Below are positions 35,582 through 64,000 of a stretch of 64,000 nt of DNA, one piece after another. Every line of letters begins with the position of its first letter. Position 1 is the first letter of the stretch. Source of the stretch: an uncultured Thermoplasmata archaeon. Its GTDB lineage: Archaea; Thermoplasmatota; Thermoplasmata; Lutacidiplasmatales; UBA184. The DNA is taken from positions 908,163-972,162 of the forward strand of contig CAVZDD010000005.1 of the NCBI GenBank assembly GCA_963773945.1, written 5' to 3'. Under the pieces are notes generated by a model that saw only the letters and a list, made by a program, of their open reading frames with translations, was not told the DNA's origin and did not search any database. The position numbers and the translations under genes were made by a program.

Positions 35582-36031
35582 GTTCGTCCCGAGATTGGCC
35601 GTTTCTCCTTCGCCACGACCCGGATGGGTCCGAGTCGGGTCCCCGGATATCCTCCGCCGCGAGTTTTCTCCAGGTACTTGACCATGTCCCATACAGTGAG
35701 AAGGGCCACCGTGGCCCCGACGAGCGCCTCCATCTCAACTCCTGTCCGCCAGAGGGCCTCCGCCTCCGCCTCCACTCGAACTCCCGTTCGGGTCGACCGG
35801 ACCTCGACCCGGCTCGCCGGTGAGCGGGATAGAGTGGCAGTGGGGGATCAGCTCCGGAGTGTGACGCATGGCCATCATGCCGGCGAGTTCGCCCGCGAGG
35901 AGAGGGTCCCCCTTCTCCACCCGCCCGGCGCGGATGGCCTTGCGGCTTTTTTCGGTGAGAAGGAGCGCGCCCTCCACCACCGCCCGGCGGTAGACGACGG
36001 GTTTCTGATGGACGCGGCGTTGGGCGGTCAC
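35575..36031 (-). CDS. moaC: Cyclic pyranopterin monophosphate synthase MoaC, interrupted by a 1-nt frameshift near 35808..35812
   Basis: N-terminal part has ...ELIPHCHSIPLTG (MoaC LIPLCHP motif) in ORF 35735..36031. The C-terminal part VEVRSTRTGVRVEAEAEALWRTGVEMEALVGATVALLTVWDMVKY (MoaC TGVEMEAL...TIYDM motif) is in another frame (ORF 35575..35775). Confidence 0.6.
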
Positions 36032-36035
36032 GGAG

Positions 36036-49761: not shown

Positions 49762-51468
49762 TCAACGCATCTCCGCGAGGCATATCTCCATAAAATCCAG
49801 CGCACCGTCGGCGATAGGGTCCCGTTGCGTGTTATTGAGACGTATATCCTGCAATAGCCCGAAGATCTCCTCGACGGAGTTCTCGTGCTGGATGGCGCCC
49901 TCCATCAGGGACTGGTCGTTGCCCCCGACCCGGGCGAGCTGGTAGGTCGTTCGGAGTTCGAGGAGCTTTTCGAAAATGGTCTCCAGCTGATGGCCGAGTT
50001 CCGGTTCCTTGCGCTCCAGACGGTGCTGGGTGTCGTCCATGAACCGGACAAGGGTCTCGGTTTCGGAATCGTTCTGGATCCGGCTCTGGAGGAGGGCGAG
50101 GCGACGGCTGATGCGTCCCCGGGAGTCGGCAGGCAATCGGTCGGCCTCGACCCAGGCATGCAAGAGGGACCGAGCGGCCTCGACCACCTCCCCGCGAGCG
50201 TAGTGGATCCGGGCCTCCCAGTAGAACCGGGTCAACGCGGGCAGGAGCGCCTGCGCACGGAACAGGCGGTTCATCGCGGTCGCGTAGTCGCGCGCGACGA
50301 ATGCCTCGACCACTTCGCCCAAGGGGCCGTACCGTTCCTTGAGATGCGGCGGCAGGGTGCCACCCTGAAGTTCCAGGACGTCGACTTCGGAGGGTAACGG
50401 GCCGGTCCCGGCGTCGGAGGACGGCGGGGGGAGATCCTTCCGGTTCTTGAGTTGGGTCAACGTGGCGTGTTCGCCGGGCGCCTTGAGAGCCTTCGCGGCC
50501 CGGGCGGCGTGTTCCGCCAGCTCCTCAGGATGCAGCTCCTCGAAGGGGCGGGTCCCCTCGTAATCGACGTCGATGAAGGAGTTCACCATTTGGGAGAACA
50601 GGTCGGTGCTCGTGGCGACTTCCTGGTACGTTACTTCGGAGGCGATGCCGGCAGCCTGGGCCCGGCCCCGAAGCTGTTCCACGAGGCCGTTCATCTGCCC
50701 CGAATCGACGCCCTTGTCCCGTTCGGAACCGCTGCCAATCCCGATGATCCGGAGCGTGAGCTGCGAAGAGTTGGGGAGAACGTGAGGCACGAGGTCGATC
50801 CGACGGCTCATCTCGGGCGTGAGCGGTTCGGAAGCGGGGGCCCGGAAGCGGCTCGAGGCGTTGTCCCACCCATCCGTGACCAGGACGAGAGTACCGACAA
50901 CCTCGCCCGACGGCTTGCGGAGCAGGTCCGCTCCGAGTGCGATCCCATCCCAAATCGCGGATCGACCCGAGGGAGCCAGCATCGAGATGAGACTCTCGAT
51001 GTACGGTAAGTTCTCGTGGCGGATTTCGGTGAGCGGCACCGCGACCCGGGCGCTGTCCGTGAACGTCACGAGTCCGAAGAATGCGCCCGTCGCCTCTGCG
51101 TTCTCGAGAATGCGGTACACCGCGGTTCGAGCCACCTCGATCTTCCGACGCTCGCCTTGGATGCCAGAGGGGTCCGGCAACGGAGCGAGCATGCTCTTGG
51201 AAAGGTCGAGCACGAGCACGTGCCGGGGCCGGACCACCGGCACTGGAGGAGTCTGAAGATCGTCTGCGATCATAAGGGGTTGACCTACGAGAAGTCGACG
51301 GCGGCCCGTCGGCGCGTCTCGCTGCTCCCGGTCACCTCTCGTTTTAGGGTCCGAAAGGTATATGGTCCTTGTCCCAGCGGCGGCGTTCGGAATCTGCCCC
51401 TGGCTCGGCGGTAGCAGGCCCCACACGCCGGCGCCGTCCGGCCGCAGATAGGGCTTTAAGGAGGACAC
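49762..51468 (-). CDS. von Willebrand factor A (vWA) domain protein with a C-terminal alpha-helical (TPR-like) region; first gene of the operon
   Basis: MIDAS motif VLVLDLSKSM (DxSxS), downstream T (VTFTDSARV) and D (LVLVTDGWDN) MIDAS residues; C-terminal 250 aa helical (WEARIHYARGEVVEAARSLLHAW...). Confidence 0.75.
   Translation of the reverse strand: MSSLKPYLRPDGAGVWGLLPPSQGQIPNAAAGTRTIYLSDPKTRGDREQRDAPTGRRRLLVGQPLMIADDLQTPPVPVVRPRHVLVLDLSKSMLAPLPDPSGIQGERRKIEVARTAVYRILENAEATGAFFGLVTFTDSARVAVPLTEIRHENLPYIESLISMLAPSGRSAIWDGIALGADLLRKPSGEVVGTLVLVTDGWDNASSRFRAPASEPLTPEMSRRIDLVPHVLPNSSQLTLRIIGIGSGSERDKGVDSGQMNGLVEQLRGRAQAAGIASEVTYQEVATSTDLFSQMVNSFIDVDYEGTRPFEELHPEELAEHAARAAKALKAPGEHATLTQLKNRKDLPPPSSDAGTGPLPSEVDVLELQGGTLPPHLKERYGPLGEVVEAFVARDYATAMNRLFRAQALLPALTRFYWEARIHYARGEVVEAARSLLHAWVEADRLPADSRGRISRRLALLQSRIQNDSETETLVRFMDDTQHRLERKEPELGHQLETIFEKLLELRTTYQLARVGGNDQSLMEGAIQHENSVEEIFGLLQDIRLNNTQRDPIADGALDFMEICLAEMR
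51454..51461 (+). promoter_or_regulatory. TATA-like element (CTTTAAGG) ~29 bp upstream of the S17e ATG (leaderless), in the divergent region shared with the vWA operon
   Basis: gggCTTTAAGGagg. Confidence 0.35.
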
Positions 51469-51485
51469 GGGTCGGCGCGCCGCGC

Positions 51486-51710
51486 ATGGGCAGCATTCGG
51501 CAGACGTACATCAAGCGGGTCGCGATCGATCTGATTCGGCACTACCCCGAATCCTTCAACGGCGACTTCGCCCACAACAAGGAGAAGGTCCTCGAGTTGA
51601 CCGACCTCCGCGTAGACGTCAATGGGACCCCGACGGTCGTCTACAAGAAACTCGCGAACCGCATCGCGGGCTATGCCACGCGGTACGTCAAGCGCCGGCG
51701 CGCCACGTAG
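51486..51710 (+). CDS. rps17e: 30S ribosomal protein S17e
   Basis: MGSIRQTYIKRVAIDLIRHYPESFNGDFAHNKEKVLELT...NRIAGYATRYVKRR, near-canonical S17e; internal ATG of ORF 51369..51710. Confidence 0.9.
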   Translation: MGSIRQTYIKRVAIDLIRHYPESFNGDFAHNKEKVLELTDLRVDVNGTPTVVYKKLANRIAGYATRYVKRRRAT

Positions 51711-52097
51711 AAGGAGCGCGCGCGCGCGTGCCCGGTCTCTCTTCTCCTACGCTCGTTGATTTTCTTGAGGCCGAGCGCGAGCGCCGGGGCTGGGTGGGTC
51801 AGGTCCGTCGTCTTCGCGGAGCCCGTCTCCTGACCAACGCCCGCTATCGGAGGCTCATGTGGGCCAACCAGATACTCGTGGGCACGACGGAACCCCCCGT
51901 CGACTGGCAGGAAATTCAGGCGCAGGCCGAGCCAACGTTCCGATCGCTGGGCGTGAAAGGTCGTCGCGTCATGCTCTTTGGGGACGAGGTCCGGCGCCGG
52001 CTCGGAAGGGCCCTTGTCCGTCGACGGGTTCCGGGAGCGGACCATCTGGCTCCTGGCCTTCCGCGGCCTGACCTCCGCCCAGCCGAATCCCCGGGTG

Positions 52098-52523
52098 ATG
52101 ATCCGTCTCGTGGACCCGTTCCTCCGACCGGCCTGGTTCACGCTCTCCTACCGGGTCGAACAGGAGACCGCCCGACCCGGCGAATCCGTGTCGGACTGGG
52201 CGAGCTTCTACTCGAGCTTAGCGGAACGACCGGCCCACCGGACCTATGCGGGTTTTCTGGGCGATACCATGGTGGGTTCGGTGGACCTCGCGAAGATCGG
52301 CTCTCTCGCCTCGATCGATCACGTCCAGACGGCGCCCGAGTGGAGAGGCCAAGGCGTCGCGACGACGCTGGTGCTCCGGGCCACCGACGAGGCCGTGCGG
52401 GACGGGGCCCGGGGCATCCAACTGACCACGCACTCCCCAGCCCTCACCGAGCAGCTCTACCGTCCCTGCGGCTTCGAGACCATCAGTCGGTTGTCCATTT
52501 TCGAACGGGGGATCTCCGAGTGA
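52098..52523 (+). CDS. GNAT family N-acetyltransferase; a possible ~120-aa N-terminal extension (51728..~51980) is in another frame
   Basis: Acetyl-CoA site VQTAPEWRGQGVATTLV (Q/R-x-x-G-x-G/A) and the beta4-alpha3 region; the core domain starts at MIRLVDP. Confidence 0.7.
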   Translation: MIRLVDPFLRPAWFTLSYRVEQETARPGESVSDWASFYSSLAERPAHRTYAGFLGDTMVGSVDLAKIGSLASIDHVQTAPEWRGQGVATTLVLRATDEAVRDGARGIQLTTHSPALTEQLYRPCGFETISRLSIFERGISE

Positions 52524-52532
52524 CCCCGGGAC

Positions 52533-53198
52533 CTACTCCAGGATCTGGAAGCCTTCCTGGAGATGGACGAACTCAACCGGTGTCGTGAGCGCGCCGGCGA
52601 GAATTCCGCGAGTGTTGGCGGTCACGCAAGCGCCGACGATCGGAACACCGAAATTCGCCGTGGAACGGTGGACCGGCACTTGAAGGGTGTCGCGCAGCAC
52701 GCCCGCCTCGGCTTCGGTAGCGCGGGGATGGACCACGACGCCCTTGTTCGTCGCCACTGCGGCCATTCCGACCGTGCCCAGCCCAGCGACGGTACCCCGG
52801 GCGACCCGGACTCGCAACGCTTCGCCGATTCGGGCGGCGGCGGATTCGGAGAGGCCCGGATGGACCAGCGCACCTAGGTCGTTCGCGAGGACGTTGTTGC
52901 CGAGGGCATTCTGCAGGGTGGGCACAACGGTCAGGGGGCCCATCGAGGCGAGGTGGTGGCGTTCGCGGGCTCCCGGTTCTTCCGCTACGATCGCGCCGGA
53001 CGAATTGAGGGCGAGGAGAGAGCCCACGAGCTCCGAGTCGAGGACCGTCGTCCGGATCACGGGCGCGCCGAACAGGCGTTCGATTTCGTGGCCGAGCGCG
53101 TCGGGCAGAGACGGGGGCGCGACGACGCCGCGTTCGGACACCCGGAGATAGACCCCGAGGTAGGGACTTCCCGCGATCGATGCACGGTTGACCGGCAC
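52533..53198 (-). CDS. eif6: Translation initiation factor 6 (aIF6)
   Basis: Five-fold pseudo-repeat with NRASIAGSPYLGVY at the N-terminus and a full-length eIF6 fold; start assigned to an in-frame GTG. Confidence 0.85.
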   Translation of the reverse strand: MPVNRASIAGSPYLGVYLRVSERGVVAPPSLPDALGHEIERLFGAPVIRTTVLDSELVGSLLALNSSGAIVAEEPGARERHHLASMGPLTVVPTLQNALGNNVLANDLGALVHPGLSESAAARIGEALRVRVARGTVAGLGTVGMAAVATNKGVVVHPRATEAEAGVLRDTLQVPVHRSTANFGVPIVGACVTANTRGILAGALTTPVEFVHLQEGFQILE

Positions 53199-53220
53199 TC
53201 CGTCGCTCCGAGCCGGCGGC

Positions 53221-53517
53221 CTACGTTTCCTCGGCGAGGTCGACTTCAATCAGGCCATCTTCGAACCGGATCGCCTTCACGCGGATCTTCGACGGGATGT
53301 GCGCCGCGCCGTGTTGCCAGATGAACACGTTGAGCCGGGGATCGATCCAGATGTTCTCGGGGGTGCCGTGCATATGGCGGACCATGAACCGGCGCACGGT
53401 CTCCAGAGCGTGCCCGGCCCGCCGGTGGCGAGCGGGGCGGTGCTTGCTCGCCCGGAGCGGGACAACGAACTCGCGTTCGAGTTCTTCGGTGCGCGTGCGA
53501 TCGGGGGTGCGAGCCAT
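53221..53517 (-). CDS. rpl31e: 50S ribosomal protein L31e
   Basis: REFVVPLR...RRAGHALETVRRFMVRHMH...IWIDPRLNVFIWQHG...KIRVKAIRFEDGLIEVDL. Confidence 0.85.
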   Translation of the reverse strand: MARTPDRTRTEELEREFVVPLRASKHRPARHRRAGHALETVRRFMVRHMHGTPENIWIDPRLNVFIWQHGAAHIPSKIRVKAIRFEDGLIEVDLAEET

Positions 53518-53527
53518 CGTTCAACTC

Positions 53528-53686
53528 CTACGGCTGCAGGTGGCCCCGCTTCCAGGTACGTCGCTTGGGGTGACGAGTGACGTGACGGTTCGTCCGTTGC
53601 ATGACCCAGGCCGGAACCCGCCGGTTGCTTTTGACCTTGCGGAACATGCGGGTCTTACGCGCCAAGCTCTTGCGACGTGTTGCCAT
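53528..53686 (-). CDS. rpl39e: 50S ribosomal protein L39e
   Basis: [52 protein letters not shown]; internal ATG of ORF 53528..53782. Confidence 0.85.
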
Positions 53687-53708
53687 CGATGTGCCTTCCG
53701 ATCCTCGT

Positions 53709-54071
53709 TCAACGGCGGGTGATGTGAATCTCCCGCTTTTCCGGCATGATGCGCTCCAAGAGGGCGCGCAGAGTCTCATCATCGATTTGCCGTTGGAGTC
53801 GGCCCGACGCGGCGAGGGACATGATCTGCTGCTCGATCGAAGCGGCGACGTCCGGTTTCGCGAGACGGATCCGGGCCAGTCGTTCCCGGGCCTCCGGCGT
53901 CAGAAGTCGACGCATGACCTCGAATCGTTCCGCCTCTCTCCGCTGCGCCTCCGCGTTCTGCTGGGCGACCGCCATCGGGTCCGGACCTGCTCCGCGGGCC
54001 TGCATCTCTTGGAGTTCGCGAACGCGTCGTTGCCGCAGCGCGGTAAGCTCGGGGTCCTCCTGATACGCCAT
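53709..54071 (-). CDS. PDCD5/TFAR19-like dsDNA-binding protein (MTH1615 family)
   Basis: ...[40 protein letters not shown]...LRALLERI; its conserved position between S19e and L39e. Confidence 0.75.
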
Positions 54072-54103
54072 CGCTCTTCCGTCGTGGGTCAGTTAGGTAC
54101 GTC

Positions 54104-54559
54104 TCACAGATACTTGGCGAGTCGGGTGTCCGTCGCCGCCAGTCCTTTCAGCAATTCCTTGGCCAGTTGGTCGAGCAGCCGGTGACCGTCGGGAGTGAGG
54201 ATCCTCCCACCATTCTTCTGCTTGCGGACGAGGCCCGCGCTCTCGAGCTGCTGGAGAATCTCGCGAATGATCGATCGGGAGCCGCTTCGCGCGTGGTAAG
54301 GCGCCGATCCTCGGTCCCGGCTCCCTCCGTATTCCGAGGACAGACGTTGAACCCCGCGGGCCCCTCGGATGTACAACTTCCGCAAAACCGAAGCGCTCCG
54401 CAAGTACCACCAACCGGTCTGGTAGGGTGCGCTTTGAGTGTGGACCCCCGTGCGGGCGAAGGCGGCCCACTCGGGCGGCCGGACCGCCTTTCGGCTCTCG
54501 AGCTCGTGAGCCAGCCGGGGAAGCAGCAGAGAGGTCGGAACGTCCGTGGGATGAGCCAT
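54104..54559 (-). CDS. rps19e: 30S ribosomal protein S19e
   Basis: PPEWAAFARTGVHTQSAPYQTGWWYLRSASVLRKLYIRG...HARSGSRSIIREILQQLESAGLV; internal ATG (MAHPTDVP) of ORF 54104..54616. Confidence 0.85.
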   Translation of the reverse strand: MAHPTDVPTSLLLPRLAHELESRKAVRPPEWAAFARTGVHTQSAPYQTGWWYLRSASVLRKLYIRGARGVQRLSSEYGGSRDRGSAPYHARSGSRSIIREILQQLESAGLVRKQKNGGRILTPDGHRLLDQLAKELLKGLAATDTRLAKYL

Positions 54560-54725
54560 GCGCGCGGCGCCACCTGCCCCGCCTATATAAACCGACTGGG
54601 GAGCGCACCGTGGCAAACCGCCGGGAACCTACTCGAATGGCCCGGCGGGCCGGGGGAAGAGGAGTCTCCGCAATTCCTAAGCGTCTGAAACAGACCATCC
54701 CGGGTGGTTTGCGGTTGTAATCCCG

Positions 54726-55340
54726 ATGTCGATCGAAAAGGCGGCAGTGGTCCTCGCGGCGGGCGCTTCTACGCGGTTCGAGGGCCGGCCGAAGGCATTG
54801 CTGAGCGTTTACGGCGAACCGGCGGTCGCCCGCATCGTCCGAATCTGTCGAGAGGAAGGGTTCGTTCCCCGAGTCGTCGTTGGGCTTCATTCCGCCGCCA
54901 TCCGCGGGGCTCTGCCCTCGCCCCTTCCAGATGTCATCGAGAATCCCGAATGGGCTCGGGGTCGGACCGGCTCCATTCAAAGGGGGCTAGACGGCCTCGG
55001 CTCGGAGACGCCGGTTCTCTTGTGGCCGGTCGACCATCCGTTCGTTCAAGCTAAGACCCTTCGCCGGCTCCGTACGACAGCGGAACGCGACGCCATGGGA
55101 GTCTGGTTCGTCCCATCGTTCGAGGGTTTCGGAGGTCATCCGGTCTTGCTCGAGCCCCCGGCCATTCAGAGGATCCGTTTCCTCGCTCCGGCGATGCCGC
55201 TGCGAATGCTTCTCCCCGAATTTGGTCCCCAGGTCGTGCGGGTTCCCGTGGACGATCCTGGAGTGAGGGCGAACGTCGACACCGAGGACGACTACCGGCG
55301 CTTCCGGTCGTTACAATCGTCGGGGGCGGATGCGCCGTGA
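54726..55340 (+). CDS. MobA/MocA-like molybdenum-cofactor nucleotidyltransferase
   Basis: VVLAAGASTRFEG (LAAGxSxRxG motif), WPVDHPFV; first gene of the Mo-hydroxylase cluster. Confidence 0.65.
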   Translation: MSIEKAAVVLAAGASTRFEGRPKALLSVYGEPAVARIVRICREEGFVPRVVVGLHSAAIRGALPSPLPDVIENPEWARGRTGSIQRGLDGLGSETPVLLWPVDHPFVQAKTLRRLRTTAERDAMGVWFVPSFEGFGGHPVLLEPPAIQRIRFLAPAMPLRMLLPEFGPQVVRVPVDDPGVRANVDTEDDYRRFRSLQSSGADAP

Positions 55341-56170
55341 ATCGTCGGATCGCCCGGGAGGTAGTGCGATTGATGGATTTGCACGTCCCATTCGTACGGG
55401 CCACGGTCGTGAAGACGGTCGGTTCGGTCCCCGGAAAAGTTGGCGCCACCATGGTGCTGAGACCCGATGGAACCTTCCTCGGCACGATCGGCGGTGCCGG
55501 GCTTGAGGAACAGGTCAAGGACCATGCCCGCTCAGCCTTCTCGAGCGGGAAGAGCGACCTCTACCACTTTGATTTGCAAGCCTGGAAGCCGGGAGGGCTC
55601 CCCAGTCTCTGCGGTGGGTCCGTAGACATCGCCGTGGAGTACATCGCCCCGCGGCCGAACCTCCTGCTCTGGGGCGGCGGGCACGTCGCGGAAGCGATCG
55701 CGGGGCTGCTCCCCACGTTGGAGTACGATTTTAGCGTCGCCGACGACCGCCCGGAATGGGTGACCGCGCAACGATTCCCGGACGCCGACCGACGCGAATC
55801 GGTGACGCCGGCGGAAGTCTGGACCGTGTTTGATCCGGGGGAGTTTTCTCATCTCTACTTGCTCGGCTACGACGCGAAGAAGGACCTCGAGCTCCTCGCG
55901 AGCTCGCTCGACCGGTTCCCCGGATACATCGGGCTCATCTCGAGCGCACCCAAGCGGACGCACATGTTTGCCGAGCTGAGGCGTCGAGGCGTCTCTTCGA
56001 AGGTTCTCGCCCGAGTTCACGCTCCCATCGGCCTGGCCATCGGAGCGGAGAGCCCGGCAGAGATTGCCGTCAGCGTGGTCGGGGAGATCATTCAGTCGCT
56101 TCGGGAACCAGTGAGACGACGTTCGGCCGTGGGCCGGGGCGCCGCTCCGGCGCGGGAGTTGTCGCCCTGA
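55337..56170 (+). CDS. XdhC/CoxI-family molybdenum-hydroxylase maturation factor
   Basis: N-terminal XdhC_CoxI (ATVVKTVGSVPGKVGATMVL) plus a C-terminal Rossmann-like domain (LLLWGGGHVAEAIAGL); 4-bp overlap with MocA. Confidence 0.75.
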   Translation: MNRRIAREVVRLMDLHVPFVRATVVKTVGSVPGKVGATMVLRPDGTFLGTIGGAGLEEQVKDHARSAFSSGKSDLYHFDLQAWKPGGLPSLCGGSVDIAVEYIAPRPNLLLWGGGHVAEAIAGLLPTLEYDFSVADDRPEWVTAQRFPDADRRESVTPAEVWTVFDPGEFSHLYLLGYDAKKDLELLASSLDRFPGYIGLISSAPKRTHMFAELRRRGVSSKVLARVHAPIGLAIGAESPAEIAVSVVGEIIQSLREPVRRRSAVGRGAAPARELSP

Positions 56171-56217
56171 CGACCCAGCAGGTCCTTCGGCTGGACATCA
56201 ATGGCCAACCGATCGAA

Positions 56218-58968
56218 GTGCCGGCTCCGGCCGAGCGGATCTTGCTGGACCTCCTGCGGGAGGACCTCAACCTGACGGGGACGAAACGCGGGTGCGACCT
56301 GGGAACCTGCGGGTGCTGCACCGTCCTGCTCGACGGCCGGCCGGCGCTATCCTGTCTCACCCTGGCGGCGATGGCCGAGGGGAAGTCGATCACGACGATT
56401 GAGGGGGTCTCTTCCGGGACGGAACTGCACCCGGTGCAGAAGGCGTTCGTGACCCATGGGGCGACGCAATGCGGGTTCTGTACGCCCGGCTTCGTCCTCA
56501 GCGCGGTCGCCCTGTTGCGGGATCATCCCCATGCCTCCCGCGAGGAGGTCGTCGACGCGATCTCCGGAAATTTGTGCCGGTGCACGGGTACACCAAAATC
56601 GTCGAAGCCATCCTCGCCGCTCGCCCGGGGGGGAGCGCGTAGCATGGCCGCAACCCCCAAACCCGACCTTCGGTTGCTCGGCGGTTCCATCCCCTACATC
56701 GAAGGTCCGCTCAAAGTGTCCGGTCGGTCCGAGTACACGGACGACCTGAAGCGTCCCGGCATGCTCGTCGGGAAACTCCTTCGCGCCCCGTGGCCCCACG
56801 CCCGTCTCGTCAAGGTCGACGTGACGAAGGCGCGGTCGATGCCCGGGGTCTTCGCCGTGTTGACCGGTGAAAAGTACCCGACGCCTTTCGGCGTGCTTCC
56901 CATCACGAAGGATGAAACGGCGATCGCCGTGAACCGGTCCCGGTACATCGGTGACATCGTCGCGGCGGTCGCCGCCCAGGACGAGCTCACCGCGGAACGA
57001 GCGTTAGCGGCGGTCGAGATCGAGGTCGAGACGCTCCCGGAATATTCGGACCCGCGCGTGGGACGGAACCGGGTGGATGTGCCCATTCACGAGAAAGGCC
57101 TCAACCACTCGAACATCCAGAAGGAGGTCGTTCAACATTTTGGCGATGTGGACGCGGCGTTCCGCAACGCCGCGGCCACCGTACGGGTCCGGGCCTCCTT
57201 CGCCGGCGTAACGCACGCGTTCACGGAACCCCAATGCACCATCGCGGAAGCCACACCGGACGGCCGGCTCACGGTGTGGAGCTCCACCCAGGTCCCGCAC
57301 TATCTCCACCGATCCCTGTCGGAGGTGTTGGGCCTCCCGATGCACCGCATCCGCGTCATCAAGCCGGAGGTCGGCGGAGGGTTCGGGGGGAAGTCCGACC
57401 CGCTTCCCCACGAAATTGCCTGCGCCGCCCTCGCGCTCGAGACCGGCCGCCCGGTCAAGATCCTGTTCGACCGGGACGAGGTGTTCTACACCAATCACGG
57501 ACGTCACCCCACGTTCAACGACGTCCGGATCGCGGCCGACGCCGAGGGGAAGCTGCTCGGCTACGACATCGAGGCCGTCATCGAGGGGGGCGCGTGGAGC
57601 TCTTTCGGTACCGTGACGACGTACTACAACGGCGTGATGGCGATGGGCCCGTATCAGCTACCGAGTTTCCGGTACAAGGGCCAGCGGGTGTTCACCAATC
57701 GACCCCCGTCGGGAGCGATGCGGGCCCACGGGGGGACCAACATCCGATACTCCGTGGAGGTCGGGCTCGACGAGTTGGCCGAGAAGCTCGCGCTCGACCC
57801 GTTCGACCTGCGGTCCCGTAACGCTCTCGCGCCCCATTCTACGACGATCAATGAATTCCGAGTCACCTCCACGTCCTTCCTGCGATGTCTCCAGGCCGTC
57901 CGTGAGCGGAGCGGATGGGCCGAGAAATGGAGGCGACTGCCGTTCGGTCACGGGGTGGGACTCGGCTGCGGGTTCTACATTTCCGGGTCGAACAGCCCGA
58001 TCCACTTCACGCCCAAGATGCCGCAATGCACCGTGCATCTCAAGGCCGACATGGATGGCGGGATCACGGTCCACAGCATGCAGGCCGATATCGGCCAGGG
58101 GTCGAACACGTTACTTGCGGCGATCGTGGCCGAGGTGGTCGGTGTATCGCTCGACCGGATTCACGTGAGCCTGGTGGATTCCGATGTAACGCCGGTCGAT
58201 ATCGGGAGCTATTCGAGCCGCGTGACGTTCATGATGGGCAACGCGGCCCGGAAGGCGGCGGAGAATCTCCGGGACCAGCTGCTCGAAGCGACGCACCAGC
58301 TTACGGGGTACCCCCGGGAGGCGCTCCGGGTCCGGTTGGAACGCTACGAAGTGGAGCACCGACCCGAGATCGGCGCAACGTACATGGAAGCACTCCACCG
58401 GGCCATCCAGGGCTCGGGCGCGCTCCAATCGACCGGGGCGTACACCTCCCCTCCCGTGGGGGGGAGCTTCAAGGGAGCCCGAGCGGGCACGGCTCCGGCC
58501 TACTCGTTCGCGGCGTACGTAGCCCAGGTCTCCGTGGACGACGAGACCGGAGTATTCGAGGTCGAAAAGGTCTGGGCCGCCTTCGATTGTGGCCGGCCGC
58601 TCAACCGGCTCGCCGTCGAGGGGCAGATCCAGGGCTCGATCCACATGGGTCTGGGCCAGTTCATGGGCGAATCGATGGACTACCGGGGCACGCGGTTGAT
58701 GAACCCCTCGCTGCTGGATTACAAAATCCTCATGCCACACCAGATGCCGGAGGTCGAGTGCCTCCTCGTGGGCGCCGACGACCCGGAGGGGCCGTTCGGC
58801 GCGAAGGAAGCGGGGGAGGGACCGCTCGTCGCGACACTGCCGGCGGTGGGCAACGCGCTCTACGACGCGATCGGCGTCCGATTCTGCGACCTGCCGGTCA
58901 CGCCGGACCGGGTGCTGAAGGGGCTGGACCGCCGGCGCGCGGAGTCCCGTGCGTGGAAGGGCCACTGA
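56218..58968 (+). CDS. Molybdenum hydroxylase with the [2Fe-2S] small subunit (CoxS-like) fused to the molybdopterin large subunit (CoxL/XdhA-like); coding probably begins upstream at ~56167
   Basis: Cluster I GCDLGTCGCCTV, cluster II CGFCTPGF...CRCTG, then the aldehyde-oxidase/xanthine-DH a/b-hammerhead and MoCo-binding domains (GGGFGGK). The first ferredoxin beta-strand (VLRLDINGQPIEV) is encoded in frame before the GTG with no canonical start. Confidence 0.8.
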   Translation: MPAPAERILLDLLREDLNLTGTKRGCDLGTCGCCTVLLDGRPALSCLTLAAMAEGKSITTIEGVSSGTELHPVQKAFVTHGATQCGFCTPGFVLSAVALLRDHPHASREEVVDAISGNLCRCTGTPKSSKPSSPLARGGARSMAATPKPDLRLLGGSIPYIEGPLKVSGRSEYTDDLKRPGMLVGKLLRAPWPHARLVKVDVTKARSMPGVFAVLTGEKYPTPFGVLPITKDETAIAVNRSRYIGDIVAAVAAQDELTAERALAAVEIEVETLPEYSDPRVGRNRVDVPIHEKGLNHSNIQKEVVQHFGDVDAAFRNAAATVRVRASFAGVTHAFTEPQCTIAEATPDGRLTVWSSTQVPHYLHRSLSEVLGLPMHRIRVIKPEVGGGFGGKSDPLPHEIACAALALETGRPVKILFDRDEVFYTNHGRHPTFNDVRIAADAEGKLLGYDIEAVIEGGAWSSFGTVTTYYNGVMAMGPYQLPSFRYKGQRVFTNRPPSGAMRAHGGTNIRYSVEVGLDELAEKLALDPFDLRSRNALAPHSTTINEFRVTSTSFLRCLQAVRERSGWAEKWRRLPFGHGVGLGCGFYISGSNSPIHFTPKMPQCTVHLKADMDGGITVHSMQADIGQGSNTLLAAIVAEVVGVSLDRIHVSLVDSDVTPVDIGSYSSRVTFMMGNAARKAAENLRDQLLEATHQLTGYPREALRVRLERYEVEHRPEIGATYMEALHRAIQGSGALQSTGAYTSPPVGGSFKGARAGTAPAYSFAAYVAQVSVDDETGVFEVEKVWAAFDCGRPLNRLAVEGQIQGSIHMGLGQFMGESMDYRGTRLMNPSLLDYKILMPHQMPEVECLLVGADDPEGPFGAKEAGEGPLVATLPAVGNALYDAIGVRFCDLPVTPDRVLKGLDRRRAESRAWKGH

Positions 58969-58984
58969 GGTCCGGAGGCCATCG

Positions 58985-59971
58985 ATGCATCTCGACCCGT
59001 TCGAACTCCACCGGCCTGAATCCGTGAAGGAGACCCTCCGACTCGCCCAGGAGTTCGCGCCGGGGTTCGACTACCTGGCGGGGGGGACGGACCTCCTGCC
59101 GAATTACAAGATGCATCTCAACATCCGGCCGCATCTGATCGCTCTCGACCGGATCCCGGAGCTGCAGGGCTACGACCTAGACCGGATCGGCGCCATGGCG
59201 CGGCTCGCCGACCTGGACAACGACCCTCAGGTCTCGAAGCATTATCCGGCCCTCGGAGAAGCGGTCCACGGAGTCGCCACCCCCCTCGTGCGCGCCAGCG
59301 GCACGGTCGGCGGCAATCTGCTGGTGGAGACGCGGTGCTTTTTCTTCAACCAGAGTTTCTTCTGGCGGGCCAGCCTCGGATTCTGTCTCAAGGCCGACGG
59401 CGACCGATGCCACGTGGTCCCCCAGAAGGAGAAGTGCTACGCAACGTTCTCGGGAGACCTCGCGCCGGCGCTCATGGTGCTGGGCGCGTCCGTTGAGGCC
59501 GCGGGTCCGGACGGAACCCGGCGACTCCCGCTGGCCGACCTGTACTCCCCCGAGGGGGACGGCATCCTGCGGCATCGACTGCGACCGGGGGAGCTCCTGG
59601 TGGCCGTTCACCTGCCGCCGGACGCTCGCCACCGGCGCAGCACGTACCGGAAGCTCCGAGCTCGACCCTCGTTCGATTTTCCCGAGCTCGGGCTCGCCGT
59701 GGCCCTGGTCCGGGACGGAGCCAACCTGACGAATTTGGACATCGCCGCGGGCGGCCTCGAGACCTATCCCCGTCCCTTCGCGGCGATCACCCGGCGGTTC
59801 ATCGGGGGCCCCCTTTCCAGTGAACGGATCGCGGAGCTGGCCTCGGCGGTGCAGGCCGCCGTGCGGCCGGTACACAACACGGCGTATCCACCGGACTACC
59901 GGAAGCGAATGACGGGCGTTTTCGTGCGGAGGGCCGTGACGGCCCTCTGGGAGACTCGGGGGGCCTCATGA
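58985..59971 (+). CDS. Molybdenum hydroxylase FAD-binding medium subunit (CoxM/XdhB-like)
   Basis: LAGGTDLLPNYK, the FAD_binding_5 layout, and a CO dehydrogenase flavoprotein C-terminal domain; internal ATG of ORF 58949..59971. Confidence 0.8.
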   Translation: MHLDPFELHRPESVKETLRLAQEFAPGFDYLAGGTDLLPNYKMHLNIRPHLIALDRIPELQGYDLDRIGAMARLADLDNDPQVSKHYPALGEAVHGVATPLVRASGTVGGNLLVETRCFFFNQSFFWRASLGFCLKADGDRCHVVPQKEKCYATFSGDLAPALMVLGASVEAAGPDGTRRLPLADLYSPEGDGILRHRLRPGELLVAVHLPPDARHRRSTYRKLRARPSFDFPELGLAVALVRDGANLTNLDIAAGGLETYPRPFAAITRRFIGGPLSSERIAELASAVQAAVRPVHNTAYPPDYRKRMTGVFVRRAVTALWETRGAS

Positions 59972-60432
59972 GCCACGCGCCGGAATTTCGCATTGTGGCG
60001 GCCGCGACGCTGCTCCCGCATGAGCAGATTGACCCGGCGGATGTCGAGCGGCTCTCTCATGAGATCCAGCGACAGGGGATGGTCCAGGAACCTATCTGGG
60101 TCAGCCGGGAGGGCGTTATCCTCAACGGACACCACCGGTATGCCGCGCTGCGGAAGCTGGGGGTCCACAGCGTTCCCGCCTGGGTCGTCGATTATCCCGA
60201 CCCGGCCATGGAACTGGCGCGCTGGGGACCCGGCCTGCCGCCCACCAAGGACGAGGTCATCGCCCATGCGCGCGCCGGCGGGCTCTACCCCCCCAAGACC
60301 ACCCGCCACGTCTGGCGCGGGCCGGCGCCGGCCCCGCATCCCACCACGCTCGCGGAGCTTCAGCGCGACGCGCCGGACAACGGGTCGTGGCCGGGCCCGC
60401 CGGCGCCCGCGCGGCGAGACGGCTCCCGGTAA
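59968..60432 (+). CDS. ParB/sulfiredoxin-like N-terminal-domain protein (154 aa)
   Basis: IVAAATLLPHEQIDPADVERL...VILNGHHRYAALRKLGVHSVPAWVVDY resembles the ParB/Srx fold signature (DG-HR). Confidence 0.45.
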   Translation: MSHAPEFRIVAAATLLPHEQIDPADVERLSHEIQRQGMVQEPIWVSREGVILNGHHRYAALRKLGVHSVPAWVVDYPDPAMELARWGPGLPPTKDEVIAHARAGGLYPPKTTRHVWRGPAPAPHPTTLAELQRDAPDNGSWPGPPAPARRDGSR

Positions 60433-61031
60433 GGCAACGGCCACTCCCCTTCGGCGAACCGCGCGATGACCGAATAGAGGGCCACGCGCTCGGCGGCCTG
60501 AACACGGAGTCGGAGCGCGTCGGGGGTGTCACCGGCCTCGACCCGCACTTTCTGCTGCGCGATCACCGGGCCGCCATCGACTTCGTCATTAACGAGGTTG
60601 ATTGAGGCGCCGGTCTCGGCATCGCCGGCCGCGAGCACCGCGGCGTGCACCTTGTTCCCAAAGAACCCCTTCCCCCCGTACCGGGGGAGCAGGGAAGGGT
60701 GAATGTTGATGGCCCGACCCTCCCATGTCTTTACGAACGGCGGAGGAAGGATGGACAGAAAGCCGGCGAGCACGAGCAGCTCAACCCCCGCTTCCGTAAG
60801 GATCCGGGTGGCGTCGTTCGCCCATCGTTCCGGGGGCACTCCGCGCACCGGAAGCACCGCCGTAGCGAGGCCCCTTCGTCGGGCCTTTTCCAGGACCGGC
60901 GCGGACGCCCGGTCGGAAAGGACGAGGGCGACGCGGGCGGGCACGTGGCCGCCGGCCGTTTGTTCGGCGAGCGCCTCCAGCGTCGTGCCTTCTCCCGACG
61001 CGAGCACGCCGAGCACGAGCTGTCGCGGCAT
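60360..61031 (-). CDS. purN: Phosphoribosylglycinamide formyltransferase PurN
   Basis: VLASGEGTTLEAL, INIHPSLLPRYGGKG, VNDEVDGGPVIAQ (formyltransferase N-terminal domain); internal ATG of ORF 60360..61181. Confidence 0.8.
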   Translation of the reverse strand: MPRQLVLGVLASGEGTTLEALAEQTAGGHVPARVALVLSDRASAPVLEKARRRGLATAVLPVRGVPPERWANDATRILTEAGVELLVLAGFLSILPPPFVKTWEGRAINIHPSLLPRYGGKGFFGNKVHAAVLAAGDAETGASINLVNDEVDGGPVIAQQKVRVEAGDTPDALRLRVQAAERVALYSVIARFAEGEWPLPYREPSRRAGAGGPGHDPLSGASR

Positions 61032-61063
61032 CTCGTTCCCTCCCCGGCGGAGGGGTCGGGGGC

Positions 61064-62035
61064 CTATAGCATCACGCGGAGGCCGAGCTTCTCGGTGAGC
61101 TCCTTGTACCGGTTCCGGATCGTCACTTCGGTGACGCCCGCCACTTCGGCGACCTCGCGTTGGGTGCGCCGCTCGCCGCATTGGACGGAGGAGATGTAGA
61201 TCGCCGCGGCGGCGACACCGGTCGGACCCCGCCCGCTCGTCAGTTCACGTTCCGTCGCGAGCTTGAGGATCTCGTTCGAGCGCGTCTGGACCTCGCCCTT
61301 GAGCTTAAGTTCCGAGCAGAACCGTTGGATGTAGTCCTGCGGCCGGGTCGGGAGCAGCTTGAGCTTGAGCTCCCGCGTCATGAACCGGTAGGTTCGACCG
61401 ATCTCCTTGCGGCCGATGCGCGATTTGCTCGCGATCTCGTCCAAGGTTCGGGGCACGTTGCACTGTCGGCAACTGCCGTAGAGGGACGCCGCGACTACGC
61501 CCTCGATCGACCGGCCACGGATGAGGTTCCGCGACACGGCCTTTCGGTAGATCATGGCGGCCGTCTCCCGGACGTTCCGGGGCAGCGCCATGCTGGAGGC
61601 GAGGCGGTCGAGCTCCGCGAGGGCAAACGCCAGGTTCCGTTCCGTGGCGTTCGAGACCCGGATGCGGCGTTGCCATTTCCGGAGCCGGTAGAGTTGGGCC
61701 CGGTTGCGGGTCGGGATGGACTTACCGTACGGATCCCGGTTCTTCCAGCCGATCTCCGTGGACAGTCCCTTGTCGTGGATCGTCAAAGTGGTCGGAGCAC
61801 CGGTCCGGGTACGCTTCTCGCCCTGCTCGGCGTCGAACGCACGCCACTCGGGTCCCTGATCGATCATTCCCTCTTCGAGGACGAGGCCGCACTCGTCGCA
61901 GACGAGTTCGCCCTTCTCGTAGTCCCGGGTCAGATGGGTGGAGCCGCAATTCGAACAGCGGGTGGGCACCACGACGTCACTGGGTCGGTCGGCCGGCTTG
62001 GTTGCATCTCCCGCGACGTTTTCAGGTTGCGCCAT
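61064..62035 (-). CDS. tfb: Transcription initiation factor IIB (TFB)
   Basis: N-terminal zinc ribbon CSNCGS...CDECG, B-reader/linker, two cyclin repeats; 323 aa. Confidence 0.9.
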
Positions 62036-62315
62036 GCATTCCCTCCGCTTCTATCAGAGTCGTTCCTAACAGCAGAGCCGCTTCCGCGTCACGCGGGGGG
62101 CGGCGGGGTCGCACGGAAACGTACGGCCGAGCGACCGGTCCGAACACACGGACGATACGTCCCGAGAACCGTCCCGTCGCATCCACCACGTTGGTTCCCT
62201 CGACCGGTACCCATTTTCCCGCCGTGCGAGCCGTCACATGGCCAGTGGGGGTAATCGCAGTGACAACGCCCACGTCGCGACCTTTGCCACCAACGCGGCT
62301 CTCCCGGCGAGACAA
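62022..62315 (-). CDS. gar1: H/ACA ribonucleoprotein complex subunit Gar1
   Basis: [56 protein letters not shown] (Gar1 beta-barrel signature ...G.V.DVFGPV..PY..VKP); TTG start; overlaps the tfb start; two TATA-like elements lie just upstream. Confidence 0.75.
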
Positions 62316-62341
62316 GGGGTATAAACGACTTGCGATGGGTA

Positions 62342-63313
62342 TTAAAGCGTTACGCGGGGGGCCGTCGGTTCCGGCGCGACCCGGAGTAGGTTACCGCCGG
62401 CTCGGAGGGGGTCGGCTCGGGGTCCGGCGTCTCGATGCCGACGGCCGCCGGGGGGGGGGCCAATGCATCGGTTCGCTCGCGGGCGAGCCGGTCGACCTCG
62501 CCCCATAGCTCTTCCAGCTCTTCTTCGGGGCTCCCATACCGCCGGTCCTCCGACAGGGCGGCACGCACTTGGTTCATGAGTCGGGCGGCGCCTTGTGCAT
62601 CCCGGGCGCGGTACTTCATCCGGTTCGAGCCGGCGCGCCAGGTTCCGCGCTTCGAGCAGGATCTCCTCCTCCTCCCGCTGTTGCATTTTGGGGGGAACGG
62701 CCGGCGCCCGCGGAATCCGGGTCACCGCCCGACGGAGGTCGATGAAGCGCTGTCCAATGTCGGCCAGACGTCCCTCCCGCAGGGCCTGCAAGAGCTGGGC
62801 GAGGCGGACGCCCGACTCCCGGACATCTTCGCCCCGTTCGTTGGCCTCCCGGATCGATTTGGCGAGCTGCTGGGCCTCCTGGGTGTAGAACTTGGGCAGA
62901 GTGTCGTTGAGCACGACCAGGGCCAGGGAGGCGCTCGCCGCTGCCTTCTCGAGCGAACCTTCCGCGAGGGGAAGGGTACGGAGCTGTTGCCGGGCATTTC
63001 CGATCCGCTGGTCCACGACTTCGAGGTCTACGCCGCTCCGGGCGGCCAGGTCCCGAAGCTCGTCGACGCGCGACAGTAGCTCTTTGAGCCAGGTCCAATC
63101 CCGCTGCGTTTTGTCGAGGAGCGCCTCGGCCCGTCGGACGGTGGTGATCGCCGCCGCCAGGTCGTGTTTCGAGATCTGGCCCCGTACCTCGGAAACGAAG
63201 GATGCGGAGTCGTACGGAATCCCTTCGGCCGCTAGGGAGTCCCCACGTCGTACGATGCCGCTGACCCGGGCGGTCAATGCTGAGGTAGTTCCCACCGGTC
63301 GATTGGGGGTCAC
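62342..63313 (-). CDS. Hypothetical alpha-helical protein, disrupted by a 1-nt frameshift at 62601..62606
   Basis: N-terminal ~225 aa in ORF 62342..63313 up to ...RNLARRLEPDEVPRP, then a GC-rich nonsense tail. The protein-like continuation DAQGAARLMNQVRAALSEDRRYGSPEEELEELWGEVDRLARER... is in ORF 62350..62619. Confidence 0.4.
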   Translation of the reverse strand: MTPNRPVGTTSALTARVSGIVRRGDSLAAEGIPYDSASFVSEVRGQISKHDLAAAITTVRRAEALLDKTQRDWTWLKELLSRVDELRDLAARSGVDLEVVDQRIGNARQQLRTLPLAEGSLEKAAASASLALVVLNDTLPKFYTQEAQQLAKSIREANERGEDVRESGVRLAQLLQALREGRLADIGQRFIDLRRAVTRIPRAPAVPPKMQQREEEEILLEARNLARRLEPDEVPRPGCTRRRPTHEPSACRPVGGPAVWEPRRRAGRAMGRGRPARPRANRCIGPPPGGRRHRDAGPRADPLRAGGNLLRVAPEPTAPRVTL

Positions 63314-64000
63314 TGTCGGTCCCTCATGAGCGAGCGGTCAAGCCGCTCCTTCAACTCGAACAGTGTCCTTTCCGCCTCATCCATCTTACGTTCCCGTAAG
63401 AGGTCCGTGGCGTTCCGAATCTCAACGGCCGCTGCGCGGGCGAGGTCGCTGTCGCCCGGGAGTTTCTGAATGCGTGCGGCGAGCTCCCGCGCCTGGGCTA
63501 CTAGGCTCCGGACGGTATCCGAGCGAGGCGTCACGGCCTTTACGGGGGGAGCGGGCGTTACAATCGCTGCATCCCCAGGGCGCGAAGAGACCAGGGCGGG
63601 GGCCGAAAGGGTCGTTGGTGGCCCATAGACGGAAACCGGCCGGTCGATCCGCTCGGCTCGACGAACTGGCGCCCGTTCGGTCGGTCGGGCGAACACCGGG
63701 GCCGCCTCCGGAGCGGGGGCGGGTTCTGCCGCGGCCTCGGGGGCCGGCGGCACGCCGGTGGCGAAGATCAGTTGCTGGAGTTCGGTGGCGCGCTGTGTTG
63801 CTTCAACGAGCCGGTTAGCCCGGAGGAGCTTGTGCGCCTCGCGGTCGAGGTCGGTGCCGTGGCGACGTCCCTCGAAGGCGGGGGGCCAAGAGGTGACTTG
63901 GGACGAAAGGCGGTCAAGGAATTCCTCGAGGGCCAGCGGGAGGGAATCGTGGAGCCGCATGAGCGCTTCGGCGGCGAGTTCGGCCGCGTGGTCGAGGGCG
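63310..64000 (-). CDS. Hypothetical alpha-helical/Pro-Ala-rich protein; the ORF remains open to the window edge, so the start is undetermined
   Basis: Protein-like composition with helical N- and C-terminal regions; 4-bp overlap with the downstream gene. Confidence 0.4.
   Translation of the reverse strand, partial: ALDHAAELAAEALMRLHDSLPLALEEFLDRLSSQVTSWPPAFEGRRHGTDLDREAHKLLRANRLVEATQRATELQQLIFATGVPPAPEAAAEPAPAPEAAPVFARPTERAPVRRAERIDRPVSVYGPPTTLSAPALVSSRPGDAAIVTPAPPVKAVTPRSDTVRSLVAQARELAARIQKLPGDSDLARAAAVEIRNATDLLRERKMDEAERTLFELKERLDRSLMRDRQ

Follow-up and report, generated by a model that had tools for sequence, protein, structure and literature searches.

The enzyme encoded at the locus described here appears to be most closely related to the 4-hydroxybenzoyl-CoA reductase (hereafter 4-HBCR) HcrCAB of Thauera aromatica (PDB 1RM6/1SB3), which is composed of three separate subunits. 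The title of Unciuleac et al. 2004 (a reference of PMC12771579 and PMC3958847) speaks of an additional [4Fe-4S] cluster in 4-HBCR. The three-subunit layout is also that of PaoABC of E. coli (5G5G) and of the Methylobacillus aldehyde oxidase (5Y6Q), two aldehyde oxidoreductases whose FAD subunit likewise bears a [4Fe-4S] cluster, whereas other branches of the family carry the Mo and Fe-S parts in one chain. The latter include families that retain a separate FAD subunit (TIGR03313 with TIGR03312, and the selenium-dependent xanthine dehydrogenase TIGR03311) as well as the single-chain MOP-type aldehyde oxidoreductase (NF045668/1SIJ). We take XdhD-YgfM of E. coli to be a member of the group with a fused Mo/Fe-S chain and a separate FAD subunit.

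In an archaeon, genes whose stop and start codons overlap by 4 nt have been shown to be translationally coupled through termination-reinitiation (Huber et al. 2019, PMC6728339), a mode of coupling that is also the subject of PMC10666635, and near-cognate codons make up about 30% of the putative alternative initiation sites in Ribo-seq data from Haloferax (PMC7261190). CTG or CUG is not mentioned in PMC6728339, PMC7261190 is likewise silent on CUG reinitiation in archaea, and the literature consulted offers nothing specific on this subject.

Architecture of the locus

The window analysed here is a stretch of 64,000 nucleotides from an uncultured Thermoplasmata archaeon of the Lutacidiplasmatales (contig CAVZDD010000005.1). 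The features of the locus, with S, L and M denoting the genes of the small, large and medium subunits, are as follows.

54726..55340, plus strand: mocA-like gene, putative molybdenum cofactor cytidylyltransferase, 204 aa; Pfam NTP_transf_3 (MobA-like NTP transferase), 8.8e-26
55337..56170, plus strand: gene of a maturation factor of the XdhC family, 277 aa if counted from GTG 55337; Pfam XdhC_CoxI and XdhC_C
56154..56158, plus strand: GGGAG, Shine-Dalgarno-like motif 8 nt 5' of the CTG; putative ribosome-binding site
56167..56169, plus strand: CTG in the place of the ancestral start codon of S, forming a CTGA overlap with the stop of xdhC
56167..56642, plus strand: S, gene of the [2Fe-2S] small (gamma) subunit; 158 codons in all other assemblies, broken in the window by a missing G
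56586..56588, plus strand: G-run, three G in the window against four in every other population assembly, CACGGG(G)TAC; from the difference list and direct comparison with L094-L097
56644..58968, plus strand: L, gene of the molybdopterin-binding large (alpha) subunit, 774 aa, with its own ATG one base past the S stop
58985..59971, plus strand: M, gene of the FAD-binding medium (beta) subunit, 328 aa, HcrB-like; Pfam FAD_binding_5 and CO_deh_flav_C
59339..59440, plus strand: four-cysteine insertion in M (Cys119, 135, 143, 152), from residue-by-residue alignment to 1RM6_B
59968..60432, plus strand: small ParB_N/SerK-N-like gene, 154 aa, overlapping the M stop by 4 nt; synteny conserved

The locus is an ordinary operon of the order mocA - xdhC - S - L - M, in which the S product would carry two [2Fe-2S] clusters, that of L the Mo-pterin, and that of M FAD and a [4Fe-4S] loop. 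The original prediction had instead joined S and L into one 916-aa protein lacking a canonical start codon and had seen in this a less usual architecture. We regard it as very probable that the operon is of the plain three-subunit type, that the 916-aa fusion is an artefact and that the lack of a canonical start codon in S is real. As to the claim of novelty, the layout is the common one, and fused Mo/Fe-S proteins with a separate FAD subunit are in any case already curated in NCBIfam.

The genes flanking the subunits had been recognized correctly, as the Pfam matches agree with mocA-like and XdhC genes on the 5' side and a small ParB-like gene on the 3' side. The mocA-like product scores 79 bits against the NCBIfam model TIGR03310 (MocA/YgfJ), which is under the model's cut-off, and its gene is unchanged in length and position in L001, L002, L004 and L005. 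Alternative starts proposed by gene callers for xdhC lie 12 codons downstream. The ParB_N/SerK-N-like product reaches 26.3 bits with Pfam ParB_N, right at the cut-off, and matches NCBIfam SerK in part, with 67.8 bits; the position of its gene is kept in L001, L002 and L004. The exact S protein is present at NCBI as MFZ0831239.1 and that of L as MFZ0831238.1 and MGA7846303.1, and the M protein is found in identical form on four other contigs.

Relationship to 4-hydroxybenzoyl-CoA reductase

All three parts of a CoxSML-type enzyme of the xanthine oxidase/molybdenum hydroxylase family are present, and S, L and M are separate genes in the seven other assemblies of this population as well as in 79 relatives at species level. 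The small subunit comprises Fer2 and Fer2_2 (Pfam), and the intact 158-aa protein aligns over its full length with the small subunits of 1RM6, 5Y6Q, 1T3Q and 1N5W. The large subunit matches Ald_Xan_dh_C (3.9e-24), MoCoBD_1 (5.5e-75) and MoCoBD_2 (4.7e-61). The separate FAD subunit had been seen correctly, and its Pfam domains bear this out; its description as CoxM-like identifies it as an FAD subunit but is incomplete, since the protein is HcrB-like and contains a four-cysteine [4Fe-4S] loop.

Among structures in the PDB the large subunit is by far nearest to HcrA (1RM6_A, 603 bits), with the next family at 258 bits, PaoC at 194 and 5Y6Q_C at 170. The FAD subunit likewise matches 1RM6_B best (198 bits, full length), followed by 5Y6Q_B and PaoB, whereas for the small subunit 5Y6Q_A (167 bits) ranks before 1RM6_C (160 bits). 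An N-terminal extension like that of PaoA is not seen in S, which aligns with PaoA from chain residue 63. The subunit sizes are close to those of the Thauera enzyme (gamma 158 versus 161 aa, alpha 774 versus 769, beta 328 versus 324), and the mocA homologue, as another likeness to HcrCAB, implies a molybdopterin-cytosine-dinucleotide cofactor. The four loop cysteines of M at positions 119, 135, 143 and 152 align with Cys122, 138, 146 and 155 of HcrB (1RM6_B numbering), so that M possesses the extra four-Cys loop of 4-HBCR, which is predicted to bind a [4Fe-4S] cluster. In HcrB these cysteines are the ligands of its [4Fe-4S] cluster.

The 4-HBCR models of NCBIfam are the best for the FAD subunit (beta) and by far the best for the large subunit (alpha). 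However, all three subunits stay under the equivalog cut-offs (alpha TIGR03194, 790.7 bits against 994.55; beta TIGR03195, 293.5 against 404.55; gamma TIGR03193, 160.3 against 257.8, a tie with the XdhC-type small-subunit models). Because of these scores we do not file the enzyme as a 4-HBCR, even though 4-HBCR appears to be its closest family. The locus further differs from HcrCAB in that its host is archaeal and that in the syntenic locus the genes called next to it encode ribosomal proteins, eIF-6 and TFIIB, without any for aromatic catabolism among them. On the model of 4-HBCR, electrons would be transferred between an external carrier, the [4Fe-4S] cluster, FAD, the two [2Fe-2S] clusters and the Mo cofactor, and a sulfurated molybdopterin-cytosine-dinucleotide cofactor would be supplied by MocA and XdhC. 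Of 80 related loci, 71 are Thermoplasmata/Poseidoniales-type archaeal records with a 4-HBCR-like enzyme and a putative [4Fe-4S]-bearing flavin subunit. The Lutacidiplasmatales genome paper (PMC9287336) contains no discussion of such an enzyme.

The start codon of the small subunit

The N-terminus of S had been proposed to lie upstream of GTG 56218, at CTG 56167, which overlaps the xdhC stop TGA (56168-56170) as CTGA. Both the position and the overlap are borne out. In the S frame, no ATG, GTG or TTG precedes 56218 within the 111 open codons that reach back to the stop ending at 55833, and a canonical start hidden further upstream is thereby dismissed. The codon homologous to the CTG is GTG in four related lineages (L001, L002, L007 and L087/L088), and in the closest species this GTG overlaps the xdhC stop as GTGA at exactly the codon of the CTG. 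All other orthologues start with ATG or GTG, 10-13 codons ahead of the NG motif, and Met1 of HcrC aligns with residue 3 of the CTG-started protein. Alignment of the orthologues thus places the start codon at 56167, a position where S has CTG and not one of the three canonical codons.

The alternative that a sequence error at the junction between xdhC and S had created this situation does not hold, because the CTG is found in eight of eight assemblies (the window, L003, L004, L005 and L094-L097). The same agreement disposes of a start in another frame combined with a second indel, since no assembly differs from the others at the junction and the GTG of the orthologues matches the CTG codon for codon. 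Nor would a frameshift at CCC UGA join XdhC to S: judged from the sequence, slipping by +1 would enter the wrong frame, and for a slip by -1 there is no codon to re-pair with. We therefore conclude that the ancestral GTG of S became CTG in this archaeal species. When JGI metagenome contigs were scanned for further CTG alleles, two contigs were found, both from a different species (79-80% identity) and both with GTG.

But is the CTG used? The likeliest reading of the sequence is that S is initiated at CUG, possibly coupled to the termination of xdhC. The hexamer CGGGAG 5' of the start is invariant between the window, L001 and L002 (alignment A1) amid divergent flanks, and many orthologues have GGAGG 4-10 nt ahead of their ATG. 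The conserved GGGAG 8 nt upstream could thus aid initiation at the CUG. Moreover, ribosomes that end xdhC at the overlapping UGA could reinitiate there on the CUG. The arrangement resembles the 4-nt coupled pairs in that the stop of xdhC and the start of S share an overlap of 4 nt and in that both products belong to one maturation and enzyme system, and differs from them in that the overlapped start is CTG instead of ATG or GTG. S would then still be made, at lower efficiency. The more specific proposition that an indispensable S is made from a CUG which has replaced the ancestral GUG, upheld by the GGGAG, by reinitiation at the CUGA, or by both, we consider to stand at even chances.

The main competitor, which we think rather unlikely, holds that the CTG is unused and that S either starts internally (at ATC 56197 or GTG 56218) without the first beta-hairpin or is left untranslated in a recently silenced operon. 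CUG is a weak initiator in E. coli. That CTG is poor at initiation would speak for this reading, as would the fact that no other CTG start occurs among about 85 orthologues. Gene callers are also divided, and public records give the identical S gene as 158 aa (from the CTG), 148 aa (from the ATC) or 141 aa (from the GTG), so that the current annotation offers three N-termini for one gene. On the other hand, a start at 56218 would cost the residues aligned to HcrC 1-15, with which the ferredoxin fold would lose its first strand and turn, and no orthologue is so short at its N-terminus. In addition, a GGAG-like motif is not seen in the roughly 20 bases ahead of 56197 or 56218, whereas the one ahead of the CTG is conserved. 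As for silencing, the open reading frames of S, L, M, xdhC and mocA are unbroken in the population, and S appears to be under strong purifying selection (dN/dS 0.02-0.07, with 0.04-0.05 for L), although dS is saturated (>1) and a recent loss of expression is therefore still compatible with these values. Initiation of S at the CUG thus remains the reading we favour. If it is true, the locus would be a natural, population-fixed case of archaeal termination-reinitiation tolerating a near-cognate start codon; even by itself the population-wide CTG offers a modest case in which near-cognate initiation or reinitiation in archaea could be put to the test.

The apparent fusion of the small and large subunits

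An unbroken open reading frame of 916 codons does exist in the window, beginning with GTG 56218 and reaching its stop at 58968, and its conceptual product shows Fer2 and Fer2_2 followed by Ald_Xan_dh_C, MoCoBD_1 and MoCoBD_2 (Pfam). The original prediction was correct in that this frame holds both the 2Fe-2S and the MoCo domains, but wrong in taking it for a natural gene, as it owes its existence to a 1-nt deletion private to the window. In alignment A1 of the window with L001 and L002 there is just one gap, CACGGG-TAC, at the G-run near the 3' end of S, and the Fer2_2 match ends at profile position 69 of 75, the site of the frame shift. On three-frame translation CRCTG stands in one frame, while the next has the canonical YTKIVEAILAARPGGSA followed by a stop; the original frame of S picks up again with TAC 56589 and closes with TAG 56640-56642. 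Read in this original frame, the peptide after the gap is nearly unchanged between the window (YTKIVEAILAARPGGSA), L001 (YTKIVEAILAARPGGAP) and L002 (YSKIIEAILAARPAGTA).

The four-G form is present in all seven other assemblies of the population (L003, L004, L005 and L094-L097; 99.7-99.9% identical). There the [2Fe-2S] subunit is a separate protein of 158 aa that ends in YTKIVEAILAARPGGSA and TAG, with the ATG of the 774-aa large subunit one base on; the intact translation of S was confirmed in L004 and L005, and the public calls for these assemblies also give S as a gene of its own beside a 774-aa L. A single base separates the stop of S from the ATG of L, and the two genes are in adjacent frames, so that a -1 indel there reads S into L. 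Loss of one G from the GGGG would thus let S be read straight into L and give rise to the 916-aa frame.

What, then, removed the G? The window contains four further private 1-nt indels within about 42 kb (at 24771, 35815, 49262 and 52003), three of which disrupt genes that elsewhere are whole (a 396-aa hypothetical protein, an acetyltransferase and moaC). Because such private indels disrupt conserved genes including moaC, an assembly error is the likely cause of the missing G.

That the deletion is a true mutation of the assembled strain, which would leave either a defective S-L chimera without the last Fe-S helix or a non-functional enzyme and an incipient pseudogene, we consider very improbable. 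The unusual CTG start might lend some colour to it, as two lesions in one gene of 477 nt could suggest decay, but of these the population has just the CTG in common. The original frame is perfectly kept 3' of the deletion, the sibling assemblies uniformly retain the fourth G, and the private frameshifts in three more conserved genes have the profile of errors. Moreover the private indels of L003, another long contig, form a different set, and one of them likewise gives the appearance of an S-L fusion.

That the [2Fe-2S] and Mo subunits were joined in evolution while the FAD subunit stayed separate, as first envisaged, can be ruled out for practical purposes. The length of the open frame and the existence of fused family branches such as TIGR03313 with TIGR03312 had made it conceivable, and a conceptual product of 933 aa does align over both parts of the fused-family profiles, yet with 342-482 bits against 791 for 4-HBCR. 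But the continuity between the Fe-S and Mo parts in the window rests on about 17-18 out-of-frame codons (TPKSSKPSSPLARGGARS), so that no in-frame linker joins the domains: these codons are the misframed end of S, whose canonical C-terminus and stop lie intact in the neighbouring frames together with the L ATG at 56644. S and L are, different from the fused Mo/Fe-S families, separate genes in this species, and no fusion is found in the same-population assemblies, in any of the 79 species-level relatives, at whatever distance sampled, or among the 120 best protein matches, all of which are 756-796 aa long and lack Fer2 domains.

Equally negligible is a restoration of the S C-terminus at ACG GGU ACA by programmed ribosomal frameshifting (-1) or by slippage during transcription: a -1 shift after GGU would indeed yield exactly CRCTG-YTKIVEAI, but the site lacks an X XXY YYZ slippery heptamer, three consecutive G are too few for the polymerase to slip, and recoding is needless where the fourth G is encoded in all other assemblies.

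With an assembly error as the likely origin of the 916-aa frame, the window is unfit for mining novel domain architectures unless checked against sibling assemblies; tightly packed subunit genes in adjacent frames easily give rise to false 'fusion proteins' in indel-prone assemblies.

The S-L fusion is a frameshift product

The 916-aa ORF that begins at GTG 56218 and stops at 58968 is open for 111 further codons on its 5' side, where the preceding stop ends at 55833 and where no ATG, GTG or TTG lies in frame. A CTG at 56167-56169 overlaps the xdhC TGA (56168-56170), and translation from this codon yields a product with the Pfam domains Fer2 and Fer2_2, then Ald_Xan_dh_C, MoCoBD_1 and MoCoBD_2. 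Around it, Pfam identifies these genes.

54726..55340, + strand, MobA/MocA-like NTP transferase
55337..56170, + strand, XdhC
58985..59971, + strand, FAD_binding_5 / CO_deh_flav_C protein (FAD subunit, M)
59968..60432, + strand, small ParB_N / SerK-N-like protein, 154 aa

As a description of this sequence the original prediction was accurate; it further claimed that the [2Fe-2S] small subunit (S) is fused to the Mo large subunit (L) while the FAD subunit stays separate. By our results this fusion is not real, and the ORF is the product of a frameshift. In a three-frame translation, the ORF reads TPKSSKPSSPLARGGARS-MAATPK past the ...GNLCRCTG motif, and the neighbouring frame gives a canonical small-subunit end, YTKIVEAILAARPGGSA, followed by TAG 56640-56642, one base, and ATG 56644. 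The orthologous loci L001 and L002 of related species have unfused genes for S (158 aa), L (774 aa) and M (328 aa), and DNA alignment with them places one gap in the window, at CACGGG-TAC. On the 3' side of this gap the differences between window and orthologues barely alter the peptide of the original frame; because that peptide is nearly unchanged, the stretch has evolved as the C-terminus of a small subunit and not as a linker.

The gap is private to this assembly. It lies in a G-run (listed as 56585 in the full list of differences), and the G is present in L003, L004 and L005, three other assemblies of the same population; CACGGGGTAC is also found in L094-L097, four short-read contigs of other runs. 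The intact 158-aa small subunit translated from L004 and L005 is NCBI MFZ0831239.1, the 774-aa large subunit of the window is identical to MFZ0831238.1 and MGA7846303.1, and its FAD subunit recurs with identical sequence on four other contigs that match the window at 99.7-99.9% DNA identity. Moreover, the best 120 database relatives (up to 92% identity), which come from Thermoplasmata archaeal MAGs, are all 756-796 aa long, cover the Mo part alone and lack Fer2 domains throughout. S has its own stop in all 79 assessable species-level loci (146-189 codons from the tblastn match start) and is fused to L in none; the L start lies -35 to +54 nt from the S stop in 77 of them and was not found in L010 and L029. 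In any case, a fused S-L protein with a separate FAD subunit would not be an unusual architecture, since NCBIfam curates fused Mo/Fe-S subunits that pair with separate FAD subunits (TIGR03313 with TIGR03312).

Comparison with the sibling assemblies revealed other private indels in the window.

49262, 1-nt deletion, breaks a 396-aa hypothetical gene
52003, 1-nt insertion, splits a 264-aa acetyltransferase (51728..52523)
35815, 1-nt insertion, splits moaC (about 35576..36032, minus strand)
24771, 1-nt insertion, intergenic
39569, 3-nt in-frame deletion

With the G-run gap included, about five private single-base indels fall in 42 kb, four of them within genes that are intact in the sibling assemblies. 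This pattern is a signature of residual indel error and not of biology, and we infer a long-read origin for the assembly; given these indels, its remaining odd ORFs deserve suspicion. L003 (a 2-Mb contig, ENA ERZ25039507 contig_6243) carries private indels of its own: it lacks one G of the G7 run aligned to window 56621-56627, just 5' of the S stop, whereupon S reads into L, which is then broken by a second indel at 57676. Because a single base separates the S stop from the L ATG, such false fusions recur, and the S-L junction is structurally prone to them.

Start of the small subunit

But where does the small subunit begin? A sequence error at the start junction, offered in the original prediction as one explanation for the missing canonical start, is refuted by the seven sibling assemblies (L003-L005 and L094-L097), all of which agree with the window at the CTG and on either side of it; position 56167 is absent from the list of differences. 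Met1 of HcrC, the gamma subunit of the Thauera aromatica enzyme 4-HBCR (4-hydroxybenzoyl-CoA reductase; 1RM6), aligns with residue 3 of the CTG-started protein, so that initiation at GTG 56218 would cost the ferredoxin fold its first strand and turn. The related-species loci L001, L002, L007 (closest species, 92% amino-acid identity) and L087/L088 carry a GTG in place of precisely this CTG, and it forms a GTGA overlap with the xdhC TGA. An ATG or GTG stands 10-13 codons 5' of the conserved NG motif in 80 of 80 species loci, and a CTG start in none. The predicted N-terminus at the CTG, with no canonical start, is thus borne out by the orthologue and HcrC alignments and holds across the population. 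We conclude from these comparisons that an ancestral GTG mutated to CTG, which is now fixed in the window's population, and initiation most likely takes place at the CUG.

Such initiation may be aided by a Shine-Dalgarno-like motif, by reinitiation after termination of xdhC, or by both. A CGGGAG hexamer 8 nt 5' of the CTG is invariant in three species while its flanks have diverged, and many orthologues have GGAGG before the ATG. Termination-reinitiation at 4-nt overlaps has been documented in an archaeon (PMC6728339), and near-cognate initiation sites have been observed in Haloferax Ribo-seq (PMC7261190). The dN/dS of S is 0.02-0.07 against three relatives and that of L comparable (0.04-0.05), but dS is saturated, so a recent loss of S expression could go unnoticed in these values. 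Public records disagree on the N-terminus: for the identical S gene, starts are called at CTG 56167 (158 aa), ATC 56197 (148 aa) and GTG 56218 (141 aa) among MFZ0831239.1, MGA7846302.1 and the Logan contigs L094-L097. The population-wide putative CTG start is a minor, testable curiosity.

Enzyme class and genomic context

Best matches of the three subunits

Large (alpha): TIGR03194, 4-HBCR alpha, top NCBIfam, 790.7 bits (cut-off 994.55); 1RM6 chain A 603 bits, next family 258
FAD (beta): TIGR03195, 4-HBCR beta, top NCBIfam, 293.5 bits (cut-off 404.55); 1RM6 chain B 198 bits
Small (gamma): TIGR03193, 4-HBCR gamma, top NCBIfam, tied with NF043084 XdhC at 160.3 (cut-off 257.8); 1RM6 chain C 160 bits, second to the Methylobacillus aldehyde oxidase 5Y6Q_A (167)

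The FAD subunit had been called CoxM-like. It is indeed a separate subunit, but the label misses an HcrB-type insertion (window 59339..59440): the protein can be aligned with Thauera HcrB over its full length, and Cys119, 135, 143 and 152 correspond to HcrB 122, 138, 146 and 155, which we take to be the [4Fe-4S] ligands of Thauera 4-HBCR. The extra [4Fe-4S] cluster is the 4-HBCR hallmark that Unciuleac et al. 2004 (cited in PMC12771579 and PMC3958847) report. Judged by these similarities of the three subunits, the enzyme is predicted to be a Mo enzyme of the 4-HBCR clade. We do not file the enzyme as 4-HBCR because it scores below all three equivalog cut-offs, and its genomic neighbours further disfavour this assignment: they include the genes for S17e, S19e, L31e, L39e, eIF-6 and TFIIB, and no aromatic-catabolism genes are among them.

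By record title, 71 of the 80 related loci are archaeal (Thermoplasmata, Lutacidiplasma(tales), Poseidoniales/Poseidoniaceae/Poseidonia, Methanobacteriota, euryarchaeote) and nine are bacterial MAGs. The Poseidoniales / MGII orthologues form a distinct sub-clade. Their small subunits are longer (about 179-189 codons, counting from where the match begins; L063, L068, L070-L078, L081-L086) and share a conserved tail, HP(D/N)PHP...MPPGHA(K/R), and their large subunits mostly have 936-947 aa as against 774 aa.

The operon lies amid translation and transcription genes (about 50670..63530), unusual surroundings for a catabolic enzyme, and this synteny is kept in L001 and L002 at about 78% nucleotide identity. 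The ParB_N / SerK-N-like gene has a 4-nt overlap with the FAD-subunit stop and one of about 73 nt with a convergent formyltransferase gene (60360..61031, - strand), an arrangement also kept in these two loci. Some 20 kb 5' of the operon, the region 35576..36600 (L089 2118..3088) holds the Moco biosynthesis genes moaC and MoCF_biosynth (MoaB/Mog-like).
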